This document shows positions 21,713 to 42,384 of a DNA stretch of 64,000 nucleotides, piece by piece. This DNA is from Nanohaloarchaea archaeon B1-Br10_U2g1 (lineage in GTDB: Archaea > Nanohalarchaeota > Nanosalinia > Nanosalinales > Nanosalinaceae), in contig LKMN01000001.1 of assembly GCA_001563875.1 (NCBI GenBank), positions 32,001 to 96,000 on the forward strand, read 5' to 3'. Each line of letters begins with the position of its first letter. Within the stretch, counting starts at the first letter, position 1. A program made the position numbers and the translations under genes. A model generated the notes under the pieces. It saw only the letters and a program-made list of their open reading frames with translations. It did not search any database and had not been told where the DNA came from.

Positions 21713-22954
21713 TTATCTTATCCTGTAACGCATGAGAGCGGCAATACCTCCCATATTCATGAGTCTCTGTCCTTCTTCATGGTCTGTTGAGATTATCTGG
21801 ATATCGCTAGACATTTCTTCAGCCTTCTCGGCCATGACGTCAATTATATCCTGCATCTCCTCTAGGTCCATATCTTCATTACACTCATCGCATTTGATGC
21901 TATCACTGATTTTTGGCTCCTTCTCATAAACCTGTTCTTCATGTCCGTTAGGACAGATATACTGTGCTTCATACATCTCTATATCTTCGGAAATCAGAAC
22001 GGTTTCGACCGCACCCATCTCCATAGCCTTCAAGACCTGTTTTAATCCGTATTCGGACTTTCCGTTCTCCTCTTTCAGGTTTTTCAGAAATTCGGTTACG
22101 TACTGTTTCTCTCTCACGGCTTCAGAGTCTTCTATTGCGTCTTCTGCTTTCTGAACGAGTTCGCTTAATGCTCCTTCTCCAGAGTGACCAAGTGATTCTG
22201 TAGTAATAATTCTGTCTTCTAGCTCTTGATGTAGGTATCCGTTGTCAACAAGCTTATCCTTAACAAATCCTGGGCCCCCAACAACTACACCAAGTAGTTT
22301 ATCTTCTCGGGCTTTATCTAGGAAAGCTTTCTTTGACTTGTCAGCAATCTCGTTGAGAAAAGTTTTCAACATCTGTTTACGTAGACGTGAGAAACGCTGA
22401 GCTGACTGTCCCCCTGCACGAGTTTTCCCCGGTACATTTGAATCCAGTGTATATGCCGTTTTAATACTAGAGCCTTGTAGATATCCTATTGCTGCCTCGC
22501 TTTTATCTGCGACGATTAAACCGTAGACACGGTCGTCCACAACCATGTTTTTCAGAGGTTCAAGTACGAACTCTTTGTCACACCTGTAACGTCGAGATTC
22601 AATGGGTTGAGGAGGTATTACCTGCCAGAGCTGGATGTCGGGCCGTCCTTCCTGTTCTGAAACGTTTCCTGAGAAAAATACTACTCCGTTCTCGGGTGTT
22701 ACAGGCTCTTCCTTCACTCTACGCCCAATCTTGTCTAAAGCAGCTTGAACGTTTTTCCGGGTATGTTTGGACTTAATGTTCTTGGCTTCTGAAGCCTCAG
22801 AAGTCACGAACTCGGATATTTTTGACATGTCGTAGCCCGCAGGAACGTAAAGACTGACCAACTCAGTATTCCTCCCTCTAATGTCATCAAGCTTCTTTAT
22901 CAGTCGTTTAAGCTGATATTTCGACATTTCTTGATGCTTTTCTTCTTGGCTCAT
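21713..22954 (-). CDS. prf1: Peptide chain release factor aRF1
   Basis: NIKS, YRCD, GGQSAQRF; ATG at 22954. Confidence 0.97.
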   Translation of the reverse strand: MSQEEKHQEMSKYQLKRLIKKLDDIRGRNTELVSLYVPAGYDMSKISEFVTSEASEAKNIKSKHTRKNVQAALDKIGRRVKEEPVTPENGVVFFSGNVSEQEGRPDIQLWQVIPPQPIESRRYRCDKEFVLEPLKNMVVDDRVYGLIVADKSEAAIGYLQGSSIKTAYTLDSNVPGKTRAGGQSAQRFSRLRKQMLKTFLNEIADKSKKAFLDKAREDKLLGVVVGGPGFVKDKLVDNGYLHQELEDRIITTESLGHSGEGALSELVQKAEDAIEDSEAVREKQYVTEFLKNLKEENGKSEYGLKQVLKAMEMGAVETVLISEDIEMYEAQYICPNGHEEQVYEKEPKISDSIKCDECNEDMDLEEMQDIIDVMAEKAEEMSSDIQIISTDHEEGQRLMNMGGIAALMRYRIR

Positions 22955-23061
22955 AAGGTATATTTGAATCAGGAATTCTTTTATTAACAAAGAAGATGTT
23001 TGGATCGCTTTTGAGGATTTGAGTTAAGGTGTATTTCTTCAGGAAACAAAGTTATTTATAG

Positions 23062-34813: not shown

Positions 34814-37474
34814 ATGAAGATAATAAAAATCCTGTTGATCTTCTTGTTTCTGTCTATAAGCGCTGTATCTGCGGAACACGAACAGAGAACAAGCGTTCCT
34901 GAGATAAGTATTGAAAATGGTGAAAGCTTTGAGGTCTATTCGGACGAAATGGGTAGTATAGATTCCATAGAATTAGAAATAAGACACGATGATGAAACAG
35001 ATCCTTGGGGATCAGATGTTGAAATAGAGAATGAAGATTTACAGAATGTAGATGAAGAGACATTATCTGAAGAGGATGGTTTGATAGAAGCAGAGCTTGA
35101 TGGGTCTATGGAGCTTTTCGAATCAGATATAGATGTCTATGCGGAAGCTGATACAGACATACTGGTAAGCGGTATAACTCTTATAGGAAGTCAGAGATTC
35201 CAAGAGGTGGAGTATGCCGAAGAAGAGGGAACGGGTATTGCTGAGACATTTCATCCGGAGCTGGCTCTTTCAGTACAGCATCCTGACGATCAGGATCTAG
35301 AATATACTTTCTACAATATAGATGACGAATCAGAGCTTGGGGAGACATACTCTTTCACTACCTGCGGCCAAGATGGACGTCATGGTCCGGAGCAAGAAGA
35401 CTGTAATGAAGAGTATCAAGGTAGTAGTCTAGAAGGAAACGTAGAGATAGTTGGAGGTGACAGCGGGGTACAGGAGTGGGAGGTTCCCTTTACCGGAAGA
35501 TATAATCTGACTGCTGTAGGAGCACAAGGAGGAGGTCCGCATGGAGGAGAAGGCGCTTTAATAAATACAGAGTTGGCGCTGGAACAGGGAGACAGACTGA
35601 GGATTGTGAGCGCTCAACAGGGAAATCTGTTCGACCAGACCTTTACTGCCGGTAGTGGAGCCTCTTTTGTAGCTAGAGTAGTTGAAGATGGCTACCAGAT
35701 GTTCGATGGAGAGGAGGTAGAGCCAATACTCATAGCGGGAGGAGGAGCCGGATCTACACGAGCAAATGAGAACCAGGATGCGAATCTAGGGGAGTGTGGA
35801 CGAGACGCAACCCATCAGACAGGAGCCTCTGGAGAGACAGGAGATGGAGGCTGTGGTGGAGATGGAGGAGAAGGAGCCAACAGTGTCAGTTCTGGAGCAG
35901 GACTTCTAGGGGACGGACACCACTCAGGAACTGTTGAAGAAGATCCTCTCGCATATATTGGTAGTTCCAGGGGAGGGGTAGCGGACTCTCAAGGAGGCTT
36001 CGGAGGAGGCGGAGGCTCAAGAGAGGTAATATGGGACAGAGCCGGTGGAGGCGGAGGCTACTCCGGAGGAGGTGCTGCCCGTGGAGGTAACAATGAATGG
36101 GCTGCAGGAGGAGGCGGAGGCTCCTACATAACTAATGATCCGCGATACGATATAGAGGTCCTAAACGAAGAAGTCTCTTCTACAGGCCAAGGGATTGTTG
36201 AGATAGAGATCGAGGGCAGTCCAGAACGGATTATCGGAGATGATTCTGTAGAGTCAGGAGAAGCTGCGGAGGTAGAGTGGTCTGATAGAGACAACTTCGA
36301 GGAGTACAGCTGGGCTGTAGAGGTCTGTACTGAGGGTAGCGAGGAATGTGTCCTGAACACTAATCCCTGGAATTTCGCTGTGGAGATCGAGGACCCTGAA
36401 TTTGACCTAGAGTTCGAAGACTATACTACAGAGCATGCTTTTGATGTTGTGACGGAGATAGAGTTCGGAAGAGATGCTTATGAACCGAGATGCGACTTCA
36501 ACTTTACGAATACAAGAAACGGTGAGCACTATGAGATAGAGGATGTAGAAGTAGAGCCTATCTCTGGCACAGACCGGGAGGCAGTATGTGAAGCAAAAGT
36601 TTACGATGAGAGTCATGAGGACTTCGGCGGAGAACTATTCGAAAACTACGATGTCCTAGACGATATAGAGGTAGGTGTGAACGTTACAGATGAAGATGTT
36701 GGCCACAAATACTTAGAGGATGAAAGACAGATACCTAACCAACCACCTGAACTGGTCTCAGAAAGCCCTGCCGACGGTTCAATAGTGACTGAGGATGAAA
36801 TAGAGCTCTCTGTAACTCCAAGAGACCAGGACGATGAGGATATAACTGTTTACATCTATGAGACGGCCGAGGCAGGTCAAAACTCTGACACTCTGCTCTA
36901 CAGTGAGACGGTTAACGACTTCGACCAAGTAAGTTTTGACGATTGGGGGGATCTCGCCCCGGGAGAGGATTACACATGGTCAGTTGCGTTCGATGACACA
37001 CATGAGAACTCTACATTTGAGTTTGATTTTCTACGTTTAACCTCGGAGAGTTACAGGGTTGAGAAAACTTTGGAATATGACTATACTACACTTTTACTTA
37101 TGGAAGAAGAGAATACGGACTTCGTATTTAGTGTACAGAACAGGATAGATGCCACTCAAGAAAGTCTTAGAACCTATGTAGAAGGTCCGAACGCTAGATT
37201 CATGGACTCTGGTGAAGAAGTTAAGGAGTATGATATGGGTCCTGGTGAGGAAAGACAGTTCCATATAGAACTTGAGCCTGAGCAGACTGGTGATAAGGAA
37301 TTAAAATTAGTAACCGAAGATCAGGTGACAGGAGTTAACACTACAGAGTCTGTTCCTGTCACGGTTAGAGAGTTTCCCGAAGCATATGATCCTTACAGAG
37401 TTCCAGGAATAAGTGTGCTACAAGTATTATTTTTAGCTCTTGCAGCTACCGGTCTTTATTCTGTACGACTCTGA
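34814..37474 (+). CDS. Cell-surface protein with ALK/LTK-like glycine-rich domain, Ig-like modules and C-terminal PG-TM anchor
   Basis: Signal peptide; FTTCG..GP..C, GVQEWEVP, GGFGGGG, GGGGGYSGG; C-term VPGI + TM. Confidence 0.75.
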   Translation: MKIIKILLIFLFLSISAVSAEHEQRTSVPEISIENGESFEVYSDEMGSIDSIELEIRHDDETDPWGSDVEIENEDLQNVDEETLSEEDGLIEAELDGSMELFESDIDVYAEADTDILVSGITLIGSQRFQEVEYAEEEGTGIAETFHPELALSVQHPDDQDLEYTFYNIDDESELGETYSFTTCGQDGRHGPEQEDCNEEYQGSSLEGNVEIVGGDSGVQEWEVPFTGRYNLTAVGAQGGGPHGGEGALINTELALEQGDRLRIVSAQQGNLFDQTFTAGSGASFVARVVEDGYQMFDGEEVEPILIAGGGAGSTRANENQDANLGECGRDATHQTGASGETGDGGCGGDGGEGANSVSSGAGLLGDGHHSGTVEEDPLAYIGSSRGGVADSQGGFGGGGGSREVIWDRAGGGGGYSGGGAARGGNNEWAAGGGGGSYITNDPRYDIEVLNEEVSSTGQGIVEIEIEGSPERIIGDDSVESGEAAEVEWSDRDNFEEYSWAVEVCTEGSEECVLNTNPWNFAVEIEDPEFDLEFEDYTTEHAFDVVTEIEFGRDAYEPRCDFNFTNTRNGEHYEIEDVEVEPISGTDREAVCEAKVYDESHEDFGGELFENYDVLDDIEVGVNVTDEDVGHKYLEDERQIPNQPPELVSESPADGSIVTEDEIELSVTPRDQDDEDITVYIYETAEAGQNSDTLLYSETVNDFDQVSFDDWGDLAPGEDYTWSVAFDDTHENSTFEFDFLRLTSESYRVEKTLEYDYTTLLLMEEENTDFVFSVQNRIDATQESLRTYVEGPNARFMDSGEEVKEYDMGPGEERQFHIELEPEQTGDKELKLVTEDQVTGVNTTESVPVTVREFPEAYDPYRVPGISVLQVLFLALAATGLYSVRL

Positions 37475-37945: not shown

Positions 37946-38671
37946 ATGCAAGATATGGCAGATCCTTTATATCTCCCTGATAGAGAGTACCGGAAGAAGT
38001 TTGAATCCTCAGTAGTGAAAGTAGAGTCTGATGGAAGCTACATAGTACTTCAAGAGACTCTTTTCTATAAGGAGGGAGGAGGACAACCCTCAGACAAGGG
38101 AAAAATTTACTGGAAAAACAAAGAATCTGAAGTAGTCGACGTTCAGAGAGAGGATGGAGAGGTAAGACATTACATTAAGGGACAGCTGCCTAAGCCTGGA
38201 GAGAAAGTCAAAGGAGAGATAGAATGGGATAGACGTTACAAACATATGAGAATGCATACTGCGCAACACTTAATATCTTGGATCGTTCTGAACATGTACG
38301 GAGCCTCAACAGCCGGAAATCAGATACATGAGGACTACTCTCGTATCGATTTCAAACCTGTAGAGTTCTCAGAAAGAGATGTAGAGAAGATTGAGAAAGC
38401 TGCAAATTCGCTTATAAAGAAAGAGCTTGGAGTCCAGAAGAAGATGATGGACAGAGAACAACTCGAACAGCAAGTAAAGGACGGAAGAACGAAACTTGAC
38501 ATAATACCGGATCATATCGATCCTTTAAGGATAGTAGTTATAGGAGGCGAAGATATCTGTCCTTGTGGAGGCACGCATGTGGATAACCTTGAAGAGATCG
38601 GAGAAATCGAGATAACAGATCGGAAGAGTAAAGGCTCAGATACTGAAAGAATAAAGTTCGAGCTGGCCTAG
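37946..38671 (+). CDS. alaX: Alanyl-tRNA editing protein AlaX-M
   Basis: GGGQPSD, HTAQH, CGGTH. Confidence 0.93.
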   Translation: MQDMADPLYLPDREYRKKFESSVVKVESDGSYIVLQETLFYKEGGGQPSDKGKIYWKNKESEVVDVQREDGEVRHYIKGQLPKPGEKVKGEIEWDRRYKHMRMHTAQHLISWIVLNMYGASTAGNQIHEDYSRIDFKPVEFSERDVEKIEKAANSLIKKELGVQKKMMDREQLEQQVKDGRTKLDIIPDHIDPLRIVVIGGEDICPCGGTHVDNLEEIGEIEITDRKSKGSDTERIKFELA

Positions 38672-39375
38672 TAAAGATAGCTGTCAGAGGTCTTTAATCT
38701 GTCTTCAATAAAGCTATCTTTGTACCATTCGTCTATATCTGTAGTGTTTGGTCTTTCTCCATATGCTTCAGTCCATTCCCAATAACAGTAACCATTATTG
38801 TTGAAGGTTATTTCCTCTTTTACTTTTTCTACAGGCAAAATTAGCTCTCCGATTAAGGCAGATTCAATTTCCGGACTTAGAGGCTCTAAAGGTACGCTGA
38901 AATCTTGTTCGAAATCTTTCTCAAAATCAGAACGAGGGTAATGGACTACAGTATGGAGTAGAGAATCTCTCTCAGCCAGTTTATTTATAGAGTTCTCTCT
39001 CATGTAGATTCCTCCTGGTCTGGAGTACCAGTTCCCAGTACCATCCTGGCCTTGGCTTACTAATACGGCAGCTCCTTTCGCCTGAACCTCTATATCTTCA
39101 AAGGCTCCGTCTTTGACTACGAGGTCTATACATCCATTGTTAACACGCTCCATGTTGTAGTTTTCCTCAAGATATCTCTCAACCATGTCACCTATACCTT
39201 CAGTATATCGGTCTAGATCTGGTCTACCCCACTCTTCCCTCTTATCTGCAGGCCTTTTCTCAAGAGGTCTGACAGAGTTTTTGGTTCTATTGTTCATGAC
39301 AAAGTAGGGATGCCAAGGTCTATAGGATCCGCCGAGCTCAGAATATAGCTTGTTTATCGTCTCTGTCCCTGTCAT
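38668..39375 (-). CDS. Hypothetical protein, possible PD-(D/E)xK nuclease fold
   Basis: E..IDL..EVQAKG pattern. Confidence 0.5.
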   Translation of the reverse strand: MTGTETINKLYSELGGSYRPWHPYFVMNNRTKNSVRPLEKRPADKREEWGRPDLDRYTEGIGDMVERYLEENYNMERVNNGCIDLVVKDGAFEDIEVQAKGAAVLVSQGQDGTGNWYSRPGGIYMRENSINKLAERDSLLHTVVHYPRSDFEKDFEQDFSVPLEPLSPEIESALIGELILPVEKVKEEITFNNNGYCYWEWTEAYGERPNTTDIDEWYKDSFIEDRLKTSDSYLY

Positions 39376-39402: not shown

Positions 39403-41187
39403 CTATTCTTCGTAGTACTCATCTCTCTTCCTCTGTTCCTTATCTTTCTGGCTGTCTGGCTTGTTCGCTCTTGGTCTGCCTGTCTCTGGGTCTTTCCGGA
39501 AGGTGACACCCACTTCTTTCAGGAAATCATTTACTGCTTCACCTATCTTCATTGGCTTGGTCGATTTCCCGTGTTCTCCGGACTCACCTTTGAATACTAT
39601 CCCTCTATCTGCCATATAGTCAAGCATTAGCAGATCGTGGTCAATAATCATCAATGGTTTCTCTGTTTTTCTTGCATAGTTTTTCAACATCTTGCCAAGT
39701 TTTACACGTGATTCAACATCCAAGTATGCTGAAGGCTCATCCAAGAGATACAGGTCCGCGTCTTTAGCTAGACAGATCGCTATTCCTACTTTCTGTAGTT
39801 CTCCACCTGAAAGTTCGTTAAGGTTTTTCTCGTATAGTTTTTCTAGTTCCAAAGGTTTTGCTATACGGTTCTCAAACCTTTTGTTATCAAGGGAGGTATG
39901 CTGTGATACTACATTCGCTACAGTTGTGTTAGAGGACTCTAGGTACTGTGGTTTGTACGAGATTGATAGGTCTAGAGCTTCTCCATTGTCCGGGCTTATT
40001 GCTCCGGCCAACATCTTTGCGAAAACCGTTTTTCCTAGCCCGTTTTCTCCAAAGATTGCAAGAATCTCTTCTTCATGTATACTGCCGGGAGCAGTCTCAA
40101 GTTCGAACTCGTTTTCTCCAAAGTCTTTCCTCATCTCTGGGAACTCGGCAACAGTTTCTTTCCTCTCAACTTGTGATCTTTTGGAACGGTCAAACTTTAT
40201 CTCGTCGGCTCTGAAACGGACGTTGTGGGTTGGAAGGTAGCCTTCTAAGTAACGGTTTACTCCTTCCTTACTTGACAGAGAGTCGGACACCATCCCGTAG
40301 CTGGCTTGATCTCCGTAGAAGATATGTATGTTGTCTGAGATCAGGTCCAGTGTAGCCAGATCGTGTTCTACAGCCATAACACTTTTCTTCTCTCCAAGCT
40401 TCCGAATTTCTCTACCGGTCTTAAGTCTCTGTTTAACGTCTAGGAAGGACGACGACTCGTCGAACATGTAGAGATCTGCGTCTTTAAGTATGGTCGAGGC
40501 TATTGCGACCCGCTGTAGTTCTCCGCCTGAGAGCTGTTCGAGCTTTCTATCCAGTAAATGAGCTATGTCAAGTTTTTCTGCAACTTCGTTGAGCTGTTCT
40601 TCATCGATATTTTCTAAAAGTTCTTGGACCTTACCGCTGTATACATCAGGTAGCTTTTCAACCTGTTGTGGCTTATAAGCCGATTTTACGTCTTCTTCAA
40701 GTTTCTCAAAATGTGTCTGTAGCCCTGTACCCCTGAACTCTTTAGTTACCTCTTCAAGTTTAGGAGGGTCTTCGTAATCTCCAAGGTTGGGTAGTATGTC
40801 GCCACTAAGTATCTTAAGTGAAACAGATTTTCCTATACCGTTTTTACCTATCATCCCTACTACTCGGCCACTGTCTGGCACAGGCAAGCCATAAAGTCTG
40901 AAACTGTTTTCGCCGAACTGATGGATTTTCTCCCCTTTTTCGTGAGGGAGCTGTATCATCTTTATAGCGTCATCGTAGGGATACTTGTTAATAGCCATCT
41001 TATGAGCTTCCATCACGTCTTCATCATCTATATGTAGCTCTCCTTCCTCTGTGAGGTAGAAACCTCCTTCTTTCCCCGCTCTATTTAAAGGATCAAAGTT
41101 GATTACGGTCTCTCTAGCTAAATCAGGCTCTATCTGTTCCTGATCGACTACTACAATAAATTTTTTCGAGTTTTTGTCAGTAGACAT
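39403..41187 (-). CDS. rli: Ribosome recycling factor ABCE1/RLI lacking Fe-S cysteines
   Basis: Twin ABC domains (GKNGIGKS, GENGLGKT, LSGGELQ x2), FRLYGLP, TFRKDPETGRPRANK. Confidence 0.95.
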   Translation of the reverse strand: MSTDKNSKKFIVVVDQEQIEPDLARETVINFDPLNRAGKEGGFYLTEEGELHIDDEDVMEAHKMAINKYPYDDAIKMIQLPHEKGEKIHQFGENSFRLYGLPVPDSGRVVGMIGKNGIGKSVSLKILSGDILPNLGDYEDPPKLEEVTKEFRGTGLQTHFEKLEEDVKSAYKPQQVEKLPDVYSGKVQELLENIDEEQLNEVAEKLDIAHLLDRKLEQLSGGELQRVAIASTILKDADLYMFDESSSFLDVKQRLKTGREIRKLGEKKSVMAVEHDLATLDLISDNIHIFYGDQASYGMVSDSLSSKEGVNRYLEGYLPTHNVRFRADEIKFDRSKRSQVERKETVAEFPEMRKDFGENEFELETAPGSIHEEEILAIFGENGLGKTVFAKMLAGAISPDNGEALDLSISYKPQYLESSNTTVANVVSQHTSLDNKRFENRIAKPLELEKLYEKNLNELSGGELQKVGIAICLAKDADLYLLDEPSAYLDVESRVKLGKMLKNYARKTEKPLMIIDHDLLMLDYMADRGIVFKGESGEHGKSTKPMKIGEAVNDFLKEVGVTFRKDPETGRPRANKPDSQKDKEQRKRDEYYEE

Positions 41188-41874: not shown

Positions 41875-42384
41875 CTAAAAATCTGTCTTTCTGTAAGTCA
41901 TGCTCACAATGTCGTACAATGATGCGGCAGTTAACGCTGCCAACCCGTAGAAAAGGAAATAGACGTTTACAGAATAAAGTATAAACCCTATAGAGAGCAT
42001 AACTAGTCGAGCCTCATGACCTATAACCGGTTGAACCGTCTCTCTCAACTCCTTAATGAAGCCGTTTCTAACAGTGTAAGTCATGAGAACTGCTGCTATA
42101 GATAAGGCTTTGAGGTAAGGAGGTATTATAGGTGAGAGAACTGCTCCAAAAATAAGGATTGATTCATAGAATGGAGGTAGTAAAACAAGCATTATACGCG
42201 TGTTTGATGTTTTACCAGTCTTCCTAGATTCTTTGAAACATAGACGGGATGAAAAGAGGACTCCGATAACAAGAAGCCCGCTCAGAGCCGAAGTATGTCT
42301 GCCAGGATGGTTTAACATCAGAGCTGAAAATATAGATAAAACCAGTGTCAAAACAGCATAGAGATGTAATCGGTTGTAATTCAC
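41875..42384 (-). CDS. Membrane protein (possibly degenerate CDP-alcohol phosphotransferase fold)
   Basis: Five to six TM segments; no DG-x-AR catalytic motif. Confidence 0.6.
   Translation of the reverse strand: MNYNRLHLYAVLTLVLSIFSALMLNHPGRHTSALSGLLVIGVLFSSRLCFKESRKTGKTSNTRIMLVLLPPFYESILIFGAVLSPIIPPYLKALSIAAVLMTYTVRNGFIKELRETVQPVIGHEARLVMLSIGFILYSVNVYFLFYGLAALTAASLYDIVSMTYRKTDF

Follow-up and report, generated by a model that had tools for sequence, protein, structure and literature searches.

The stretch of DNA considered here, referred to below as the window, comprises 64,000 nucleotides from Nanohaloarchaea archaeon B1-Br10_U2g1 (contig LKMN01000001.1, positions 32,001 to 96,000 of the forward strand). 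On its minus strand, at 39403-41187, it carries an open reading frame (ORF) of 594 codons for ABCE1 (also called RLI or Rli1), the N-terminal domain of which is the counterpart of a domain with two [4Fe-4S] clusters and contains not a single cysteine. The identification as ABCE1, put forward in an initial annotation made from the sequence, is borne out. The NCBIfam equivalog model for ABCE1/RLI, NF009945, scores the product at 704.3 bits, the cut-off being 469, and model positions 4-589 of 592 are covered; the 594-residue protein aligns over residues 8-592 with the solved ABCE1 structure 3bk7 (E 6e-161) and also end to end with the ABCE1 of S. solfataricus (6tmf), of yeast and of human or other mammals, at 39-47% identity. 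In a Pfam search two ABC_tran domains were matched, and neither Fer4_RLI (PF04068) nor Fer4 (PF00037) was. The genome (G000) amounts to 709,831 bases in 26 contigs, is 96.75% complete and 0.28% contaminated, has a G+C content of 42.6%, and encodes an acidic proteome (D+E 18.8%) of which 0.65% is cysteine. A second, canonical ABCE1, which the same annotation had named as the finding that would speak against it, was looked for: the genome holds only one ABCE1 above the cut-off, six further matches being ordinary ABC ATPases of at most 82 bits. By computation, the gene of the window is a true single-copy ABCE1 orthologue.

The domain in question, residues 1-81, is encoded at 40945-41187 (minus strand, as are all the features of the gene given below). 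Reading of the sequence confirmed that these residues include no cysteine; the only one in the protein is C472. The motif spacing described in the initial annotation also proved right in every detail: the first motif reads I19-x4-A24-x3-V28-x3-D32-P33, the region of the second A65-x3-Y69-P70-Y-D-D-A-I, and both P33-L-N-R-A-G38 and I78-Q-L-P81 are present. When the protein is aligned to 3bk7 (P. abyssi) and 6tmf, I19, A24, V28 and D32-P33 overlie CX4CX3CX3CP, and V58/M59, H62, A65 and Y69-P70 overlie CX2CX2CX3CP; the first cysteine of the latter motif falls on V58 or M59 because a one-residue insertion precedes H62. For human ABCE1, a 2026 review in the Journal of Biological Chemistry (PMC13255074) gives two sets of ligands, C16-C21-C25-C65 for the ABCE1-type cluster and C29-C55-C58-C61 for the ferredoxin-like one. 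According to the alignment, the sites of C16, C21 and C25 are occupied by I19, A24 and V28 (41104-41133), and that of the fourth ligand of the same cluster, C65, by Y69 (40981-40983). At the ferredoxin-like site, C29 corresponds to D32 (41092-41094), which is invariant in all the cysteine-free sequences, and C55, C58 and C61 are replaced by V58-M59, H62 and A65 (40993-41016), where V58, M59 and H62 are invariant. None of the eight ligand cysteines is therefore present, and with all eight replaced the known mode of binding is available to neither of the two [4Fe-4S] clusters; nor does the domain, which has no cysteine and no PF00037 match, contain the ferredoxin motif CX2CX2CX3CP. A low cysteine content would in itself be unremarkable in a proteome with 0.65% of this residue. 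The striking point is the departure from an otherwise near-universal motif.

This state is not peculiar to one genome. From a collection of 5.8 billion proteins we examined the best 120 homologues (63-100% identity), and all 120 have no cysteine in the N-terminal stretch; the closest of those that bear a name are all Nanohaloarchaea (Nanosalina, Nanohalobium and Nanohalococcus). A survey of the phylum covered 70 species genomes of Nanohalarchaeota, assigned to families designated f1 to f5, with E <= 1e-50 as the threshold for an ABCE1 match. ABCE1 was matched in 55 of the 70: in 45 of 49 genomes of f1 plus the genome of the window, in the one genome of f2, in all 8 of f5, in none of the 10 of f4 and not in the one genome of f3, which is 61% complete. 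The N-terminus was read in 51 of these 55 (left out were G016 and three matches without N-terminus, in G020, G047 and G060). There are no cysteines in 49 of them, i.e. 43 of f1, the genome of the window included, and 6 of f5; one genome, G035, has five, and G001, of the sister family f2, has nine, which is the canonical set plus one. These counts bear on the possibility that the missing cysteines reflect an artefact or a decaying gene, namely an assembly error, a pseudogene or a recoded cysteine. The only point on its side is that the genome is a draft in 26 contigs, and no positive evidence for it was found. The frame is open, the same state recurs in 49 species genomes, single-contig ones among them, as well as in 120 homologue clusters that are independent of one another and drawn from several sources, and purifying selection, described below, is clear. 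Moreover, the eight positions use eight different ordinary codons, cysteine is used elsewhere in the proteome, and the gene is present in both salt-lake and soda-lake DNA runs, the former containing 85-90% of the sampled gene words (no RNA dataset is among the listed runs containing it). We regard such an error or decay as extremely improbable.

Outside the phylum, cysteine-free forms are rare. We took the best 150 representatives, at 50% identity, of 1.84 billion proteins, 90 of which are full length: at least 8 cysteines were counted in 80 of these 90 ABCE1 proteins and fewer in 10, of which only three have none (P0080, P0121 and P0132), all of nanohaloarchaeal type. P0122, a non-acidic relative, has a single cysteine. 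Two unusual sorts of protein were encountered in the same sample: P0171, P0192, P0194, P0204 and P0232 are ABCE-like, 626-921 residues long, with 5-6 cysteines arranged differently (CKPK ... C..C ... AC..C ... CP), and P0136 is an ABCE1 of 874 residues with a large insertion ahead of the last CP motif. In Halobacteriota, a sample of 301 genomes, entered via a Methanocorpusculaceae locus, gave ABCE1 in 296. N-termini were read at 42 loci, made up of the 30 with the highest scores, those of 3 seed genomes and 9 out of 10 fetched low scorers, while about 255 further matches were counted by score only, nearly all of them far above the cysteine-free forms. Forty of the 42 have 8-10 cysteines, and the other two, in G102 and G268, have four. 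All 16 ABCE1 of haloarchaeal type (60-68% G+C, D+E 18-20%) have nine cysteines, in CX4CX3CX3CP plus CX4CX2CX3CP. The haloarchaeal proteins (L195-L220) also show features of their own: an insertion of two residues within the ferredoxin-like motif (C-L-G-E-T/S-C-G-I-C), the extra ninth cysteine, and an acidic insertion of 7-10 residues in a loop of the iron-sulfur (FeS) domain. In the literature, apart from supplements and most subscription journals, which lay outside the search, we found no paper on nanohaloarchaea, haloarchaea or DPANN that describes a cysteine-free, one-cluster or absent ABCE1.

The domain deprived of its cysteines is conserved and under purifying selection. Two alignments of cysteine-free sequences were used, one of 57 full-length sequences and one of 41 sequences of the domain only; D32, P33, L34, R36, G42, F43, V58, M59 and H62, among others, are invariant in both, and N35 is invariant in the second and at least 90% conserved in the first. 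Among 47 cysteine-free orthologues, mean identity is 72.5% over the N-terminal 70 aligned residues versus 65.3% over the other 513, and the median proportion of nonsynonymous differences (pN) is 0.134 in the N-terminal domain versus 0.223 in the rest. The corresponding synonymous proportion (pS) is about 0.78 in both parts, i.e. synonymous sites are near saturation; the ratio of the nonsynonymous to the synonymous substitution rate (dN/dS), 0.19 for the domain and 0.18 for the rest, was taken from the 73 pairs, out of 1081, in which dS was usable.

Three of the invariant residues, D32, M59 (or V58) and H62, occupy former ligand positions of one and the same cluster, and this pattern brings in the idea that the clusters have been replaced by another cofactor, such as a mononuclear site for Zn, Fe or Cu at D32, M59 and H62, possibly with E60. 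D32, V58, M59 and H62 are invariant in 57/57 and 41/41 cysteine-free sequences while their neighbours vary; Asp, His and Met can all serve as metal ligands; and the D14C variant of P. furiosus ferredoxin, 2z8q, is among the fold matches. An Asp-ligated cluster does exist in P. furiosus ferredoxin. Against this, three mixed ligands with a variable fourth position (A, I, C or S) correspond to no known site, pairing of Asp with His and packing by Met accounts equally for the invariance with no metal involved, and at the other former cluster site all the side chains are aliphatic or aromatic. We consider such a replacement unlikely.

Whether the domain can keep its shape without metal was addressed by modelling. 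An AlphaFold2 model of the full-length protein, built from an alignment of cysteine-poor sequences only, has a predicted local distance difference test score (pLDDT) of 86.0 and matches solved ABCE1 structures with Z 37.7-48.0 (6tmf_d over residues 9-593, Z 45.7); in its N-terminal domain the order of elements is strand-helix-strand-strand-helix-strand. When only the domain was modelled (90 residues, 41 cysteine-free sequences), one confident model was obtained, with a score of 85.8 overall and above 93 for residues 1-70. A Foldseek search with this model ranks ABCE1 FeS domains first (6tmf, 7a1g and 3bk7; template modelling scores, TM, of 0.61-0.66) and ferredoxins next; for the FeS domain of 3bk7, TM is 0.64, with a root-mean-square deviation (rmsd) of 2.4 over 76 columns. 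In a search independent of Foldseek, most of the 50 listed rows, the seven best included, are ferredoxin-type Fe-S subunits or domains, the best match having Z 8.2 and an rmsd of 2.0 over 68 residues. These results are consistent with retention of the ferredoxin-like fold, as predicted by a program that knows ABCE1. The cluster-free ferredoxin-like fold proposed at the outset is thus supported in part: that the domain is cysteine-free and selected is observed, and the fold (TM 0.61-0.66, Z up to 8.2) is a prediction.

In the rest of the protein the ATPase motifs are intact. In the first nucleotide-binding domain (NBD1) we find a Walker A motif GKNGIGKS (40825-40848), the signature LSGGELQ (40513-40533), a Walker B motif LYMFDE (40456-40473) and the H-loop histidine H275 (40363-40365), and in NBD2 a Walker A motif GENGLGKT (40027-40050), again LSGGELQ (39793-39813), a Walker B motif LYLLDE (39736-39753) and H517 (39637-39639). 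In the 57 full-length sequences K120, S220-E223, Q225, D243, E244 and H275 of NBD1 and K386, T387, S460-G462, D483, E484 and H517 of NBD2 are invariant. Hinge 2, RPRANKPDSQKD (residues 571-582; 39442-39477), conforms to the R-P-R-A-N-K ... S motif, and R571, N575, S579, Q580 and D582 are invariant in the same set; in the solved complexes presented by Nürenberg-Goloub et al. 2020 (PMC7196836), hinge 2, including S580, is a constant anchor on the small subunit. The ribosome contacts of the S. solfataricus protein given in that paper served for comparison. In the alignment to 6tmf_d its uS12 contacts P25, R28 and S29 correspond to P33, R36 and A37, within D32-P-L-N-R-A-G38 (41074-41094), and are kept. 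The cantilever strand that links the domain to NBD1, A74-I-K-M-I-Q-L-P81 (40945-40968), aligns with A65-P72 of S. solfataricus; its I68 and N70 are changed conservatively to M77 and Q79, and a strand is predicted at residues 75-79.

Taken together, we consider it likely that we are dealing with a working ABCE1, the N-terminal domain of which has turned into a protein-only version of the iron-sulfur, or wedge, domain. The literature on canonical ABCE1 (PMC8153317, PMC7196836 and PMC13255074) describes the clusters as diamagnetic and structural, without redox catalysis, and the domain as a wedge moved by ATP-driven closure. In the protein of the window, the aliphatic and aromatic side chains of I19, A24, V28 and Y69 would fill the ABCE1-type cluster site, and the invariant D32, V58/M59 and H62 the ferredoxin-like one. 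The domain retains its cantilever strand and the P-x-x-R motif that contacts uS12 and would keep its fold; since these are kept, ATP-driven closure could still swing it. Closure of the two intact NBD sites would drive the domain against aRF1 or Pelota and into the pocket formed by h44 and uS12, which would split the ribosome. Both partners in the A site are encoded in the genome: aRF1 within the window, as a 436-codon open frame with GGQ and NIKS motifs (21716-23023, minus strand), and Pelota outside it (G000:C24:17301-18275; 223.9 bits, the cut-off being 177.65).

The dispensability of ABCE1 itself enters the discussion through family f4. Our sample of this family consists of 10 species genomes from 5 genera (G003-G012), 80-93% complete, one of them in 8 contigs. 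ABCE1 was found in none of these 10 draft genomes, even at E <= 1e-3 and with stop codons read through. The best matches, of at most 104 bits (loci L062-L071, L234 and L235), are ordinary ABC ATPases. Two kinds of match were considered as possible remnants of ABCE1 and rejected: those of 600 codons are exporters made of a transmembrane part plus an NBD, and the best match of 242 residues is a ZnuC-type ATPase located between its binding protein and its permease. As controls, aEF-2 was found in 10/10 and Pelota in 9/10 of these genomes. Absence from draft genomes is no proof, yet 0/10 set against a control of 10/10 is hard to blame on incompleteness, and f4 may be an archaeal lineage without ABCE1. 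Bacterial ribosome recycling factor (RRF) was found above the cut-off in 0/70 genomes of the phylum, i.e. in 0/10 of f4, and was discarded as a substitute for recycling by ABCE1. The searches with aEF-2 gave one observation of another kind: some open frames are 1234-1291 codons long, with matches that begin at model positions 23-74 (G001:C11:168321-170267, G061:C3:901837-903786, G067:C10:80850-82937 and G007:C9:15154-17232), and may hold N-terminal inteins or fusions.

Several points weigh against the interpretation of the window protein as a functional, protein-only ABCE1. First, the contacts of the S. solfataricus protein with ribosomal RNA (rRNA) through R2, K15 and K59 are not kept, the corresponding residues being F10, L23 and N67. 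Second, the prediction of the domain is not uniformly good: it is the least confident part of the full-length model (pLDDT 62-78), the remaining four of the five domain-only models score 48-63, Foldseek gives the domain weak E-values (1.9e-3 at best), and its VIA Z values of 7-8 fall in the range termed 'middling'. Third, that Asp, Met and His are invariant where cluster ligands once stood is also compatible with a different metal site. Fourth, the support for function of any nanohaloarchaeal ABCE1 is computational. Finally, f4 lives without ABCE1, and the demand for ABCE1 activity may therefore be relaxed in the order. The last point, together with the rRNA contacts of the domain that are not conserved, leads to the proposal that the protein has changed or narrowed its job and acts on the small subunit as an anti-association, initiation or biogenesis factor, recycling being done otherwise; f4, which keeps aEF-2 (10/10) and Pelota (9/10), indicates that the order can dispense with splitting driven by ABCE1. 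However, constraint on the domain is no weaker than that on the ATPase body, which is hard to explain without a mechanical role, little or no variation is seen in the cantilever, the uS12 motif, either of the ATP sites or hinge 2, and the 70 genomes offer no RRF over the cut-off to take the place of ABCE1 in recycling. We judge a changed job to be a little less probable even than the metal site discussed above.

Comparison with known systems helps to place the protein that we believe to be a working ABCE1 with a cluster-free wedge. It shares with canonical ABCE1/Rli1 (3BK7, 6TMF, yeast and human) the length and the order of domains (N-terminal domain, NBD1 with insertion, hinge 1, NBD2 and hinge 2), intact ATPase and hinge-2 motifs, the P-x-x-R motif for uS12 and the cantilever strand, and differs in that all eight ligands are replaced, that Fer4_RLI and Fer4 are not matched and that some rRNA contacts are changed. 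The one-cluster proteins of G035, G102 and G268 are in the same clade of the NBD tree, have likewise lost the ferredoxin-like ligands and have D29 and H58, but they retain C16, C21, C25 and C65, where the window protein has I, A, V and Y. Engineered ABCE1 without the FeS domain (1YQT, 3OZX and 5YV5) similarly carries no clusters, and its twin-ATPase body superposes well (Z 44.8-44.9); in those constructs, however, the domain is deleted, whereas here it is kept and conserved and only the ligands are gone. Barthelme and colleagues are said to have found, in 2011, that ABCE1 without the FeS domain fails to split ribosomes. A further parallel is offered by RNA polymerase subunit D/Rpb3/AC40, in which a fold of the 2x[4Fe-4S] type is a structural module (2pa8_D, 4c2m_C and 7eu0_C were matched with Z 4.7-5.6), although protein and function are unrelated and the match is weak. 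The clusters of the polymerase D subunit are present in some archaea and absent in others and in eukaryotes. Lastly, the ABC-F proteins (EttA, Lsa, VmlR), which gave the second-best family matches, are likewise proteins with twin NBDs that act on ribosomes, soluble and without a cofactor; the window protein is far below the ABC-F cut-offs (163 bits vs 380), and ABC-F proteins have no N-terminal wedge, bind at the E site and do another job.

It was initially suggested that loss of the clusters frees the symbiont from Fe-S assembly, and for this no support was found. Contig C9 of the genome encodes SufB, SufD, the cysteine desulfurase SufS, a SufU/IscU-like protein (a 125-codon frame named by eye only) and SufC, and contig C16 a radical-S-adenosylmethionine (radical-SAM) protein of 538 residues with CX3CX2C, so that the sufBDSU-C genes and a radical-SAM enzyme are kept. 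The Fe-S proteome nevertheless looks small: cysteine is absent from 247 of 717 crude ORFs, and no ferredoxin motif CxxCxxCxxxC occurs in ORFs of at least 100 residues. A search of the genome with the PriL family gave only a match of 17.5 bits, to a primase-like frame of 454 codons (G000:C9:12417-13778) with four cysteines, three of them in a C-terminal zinc-finger-like cluster, and no clear PriL Fe-S domain; as this match is weak, it is the SUF genes and the radical-SAM protein that argue for Fe-S assembly being still in use. Nor did the predicted co-occurrence of cysteine-free ABCE1 with loss of SUF appear, the opposite being seen: SufBD was found in 47/49 genomes of f1 and 6/8 of f5, the families with cysteine-free ABCE1, versus 1/10 in f4, which has no ABCE1, and 0/1 in f2, which has the canonical 9-Cys form. 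Loss of clusters in ABCE1 is thus not tied to loss of Fe-S biogenesis. The f2 genome, G001, is an observation in its own right: non-acidic and with its ABCE1 at L013 (G001:C11:87530-89248), it has no SufBD match despite being 93% complete.

As for the advantage, nanohaloarchaea have tiny genomes and live in oxic, strongly lit brines. A likely and plausible benefit would be a translation apparatus independent of Fe-S supply and of oxidative damage; Alhebshi et al. 2012 found the Fe-S cofactor of Rli1 to be a main target of oxidative stress. The habitat by itself is not a sufficient explanation of the loss, because the haloarchaeal neighbours keep all the cysteines.

The relatives with an intermediate number of cysteines suggest how the state arose. 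G035 retains C16, C21, C25, C61 and C65, and G102 and G268 retain C16, C21, C25 and C65; in all three the ligands are complete for one cluster only, that of ABCE1 type, and all three share with the cysteine-free forms an Asp at position 29 and a His at position 58. In a tree made from the NBDs only (67 rows, quick IQ-TREE), all the ABCE1 proteins without the ferredoxin-like ligands form one clade of 22 rows (support 94), below which branch the canonical gene of f2 and two canonical metagenomic proteins, to give a clade of 25 rows (95). It follows that the ferredoxin-like cluster (C29, C55, C58, C61) was lost once, and first. The ABCE1-type cluster was probably lost later, and at least twice, judging from the different replacements: f1 and P0122 have I/A/V/Y at its site and f5 has other residues.

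The protein of G035 (L012, G035:C20:5140-6894) is a mosaic. It is nested in f1 in both the NBD tree and a tree of aEF-2, and its NBDs are 73% identical to those of f1 and 56% to those of G102, but its N-terminal domain is 67% identical to that of G102 and 47% to that of f1; this reflects either a domain exchange or a strong constraint from the retained cluster. The two other one-cluster genes (L226 in G102, G102:C1:1175014-1176765, and L225 in G268, G268:C40:8300-10054, the latter with one in-frame TGA by the search table) have four cysteines each. In the aEF-2 tree G102 and G268 are sister to Halobacteria (99), within a clade that includes a methanogen (96), and Nanohalarchaeota stand apart, grouped with a Woesearchaeote (97). 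Their sole ABCE1, on the other hand, nests in the nanohaloarchaeal clade of the NBD tree as sister to f1 (support 84). Forcing it to group with 14 Halobacteriota genes costs 75.4 log-likelihood units (p 0.0035 in the approximately unbiased test, which is weakened because the group to be constrained was chosen with the tree already in view). The simplest reading is that, in this Halobacteria-related lineage, ABCE1 was probably replaced laterally by a nanohaloarchaeal gene. Nanohalarchaeota would display a natural series of dismantling, from two clusters (f2) to one (G035, and G102 and G268 after lateral transfer), to none (f1, f5) and to no ABCE1 gene at all (f4), a scenario to which we give an even chance. 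If true, the clusters of ABCE1 would be replaceable structural staples, and ABCE1 would not be universal in archaea.

The gene is surrounded in the window by housekeeping genes, which encode an AlaX-like editing protein, a KH-domain protein, FtsZ and GatC. Three adjoining ORFs, of 886, 235 and 169 residues (34814-37474, plus strand; 38668-39375 and 41875-42384, both minus strand), were matched by no Pfam family at E <= 0.001.

Textbooks point to ABCE1/Rli1 to explain why cytosolic translation cannot do without Fe-S biogenesis. A review (PMC8153317) asks whether cells can 'optimize or replace' the function of ABCE1 when the cofactor is scarce, and a clade with a conserved and selected cysteine-free domain answers that question and renders it testable. 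The natural series, with its one-cluster intermediates, lets one ask whether the domain folds in the absence of metal, what residues take the place of each cluster, and whether translation in a model organism can be supported by an ABCE1 independent of oxygen and iron. Confirmation of the family without ABCE1, or of the lateral replacement of this gene in a lineage related to Halobacteria, would in either case mean that a textbook statement has to be revised. The protein of the window is an orthologue that fails the cofactor hallmark of its family, and as such it turns the question of what the clusters of ABCE1 are for into direct experiments with natural sequences.

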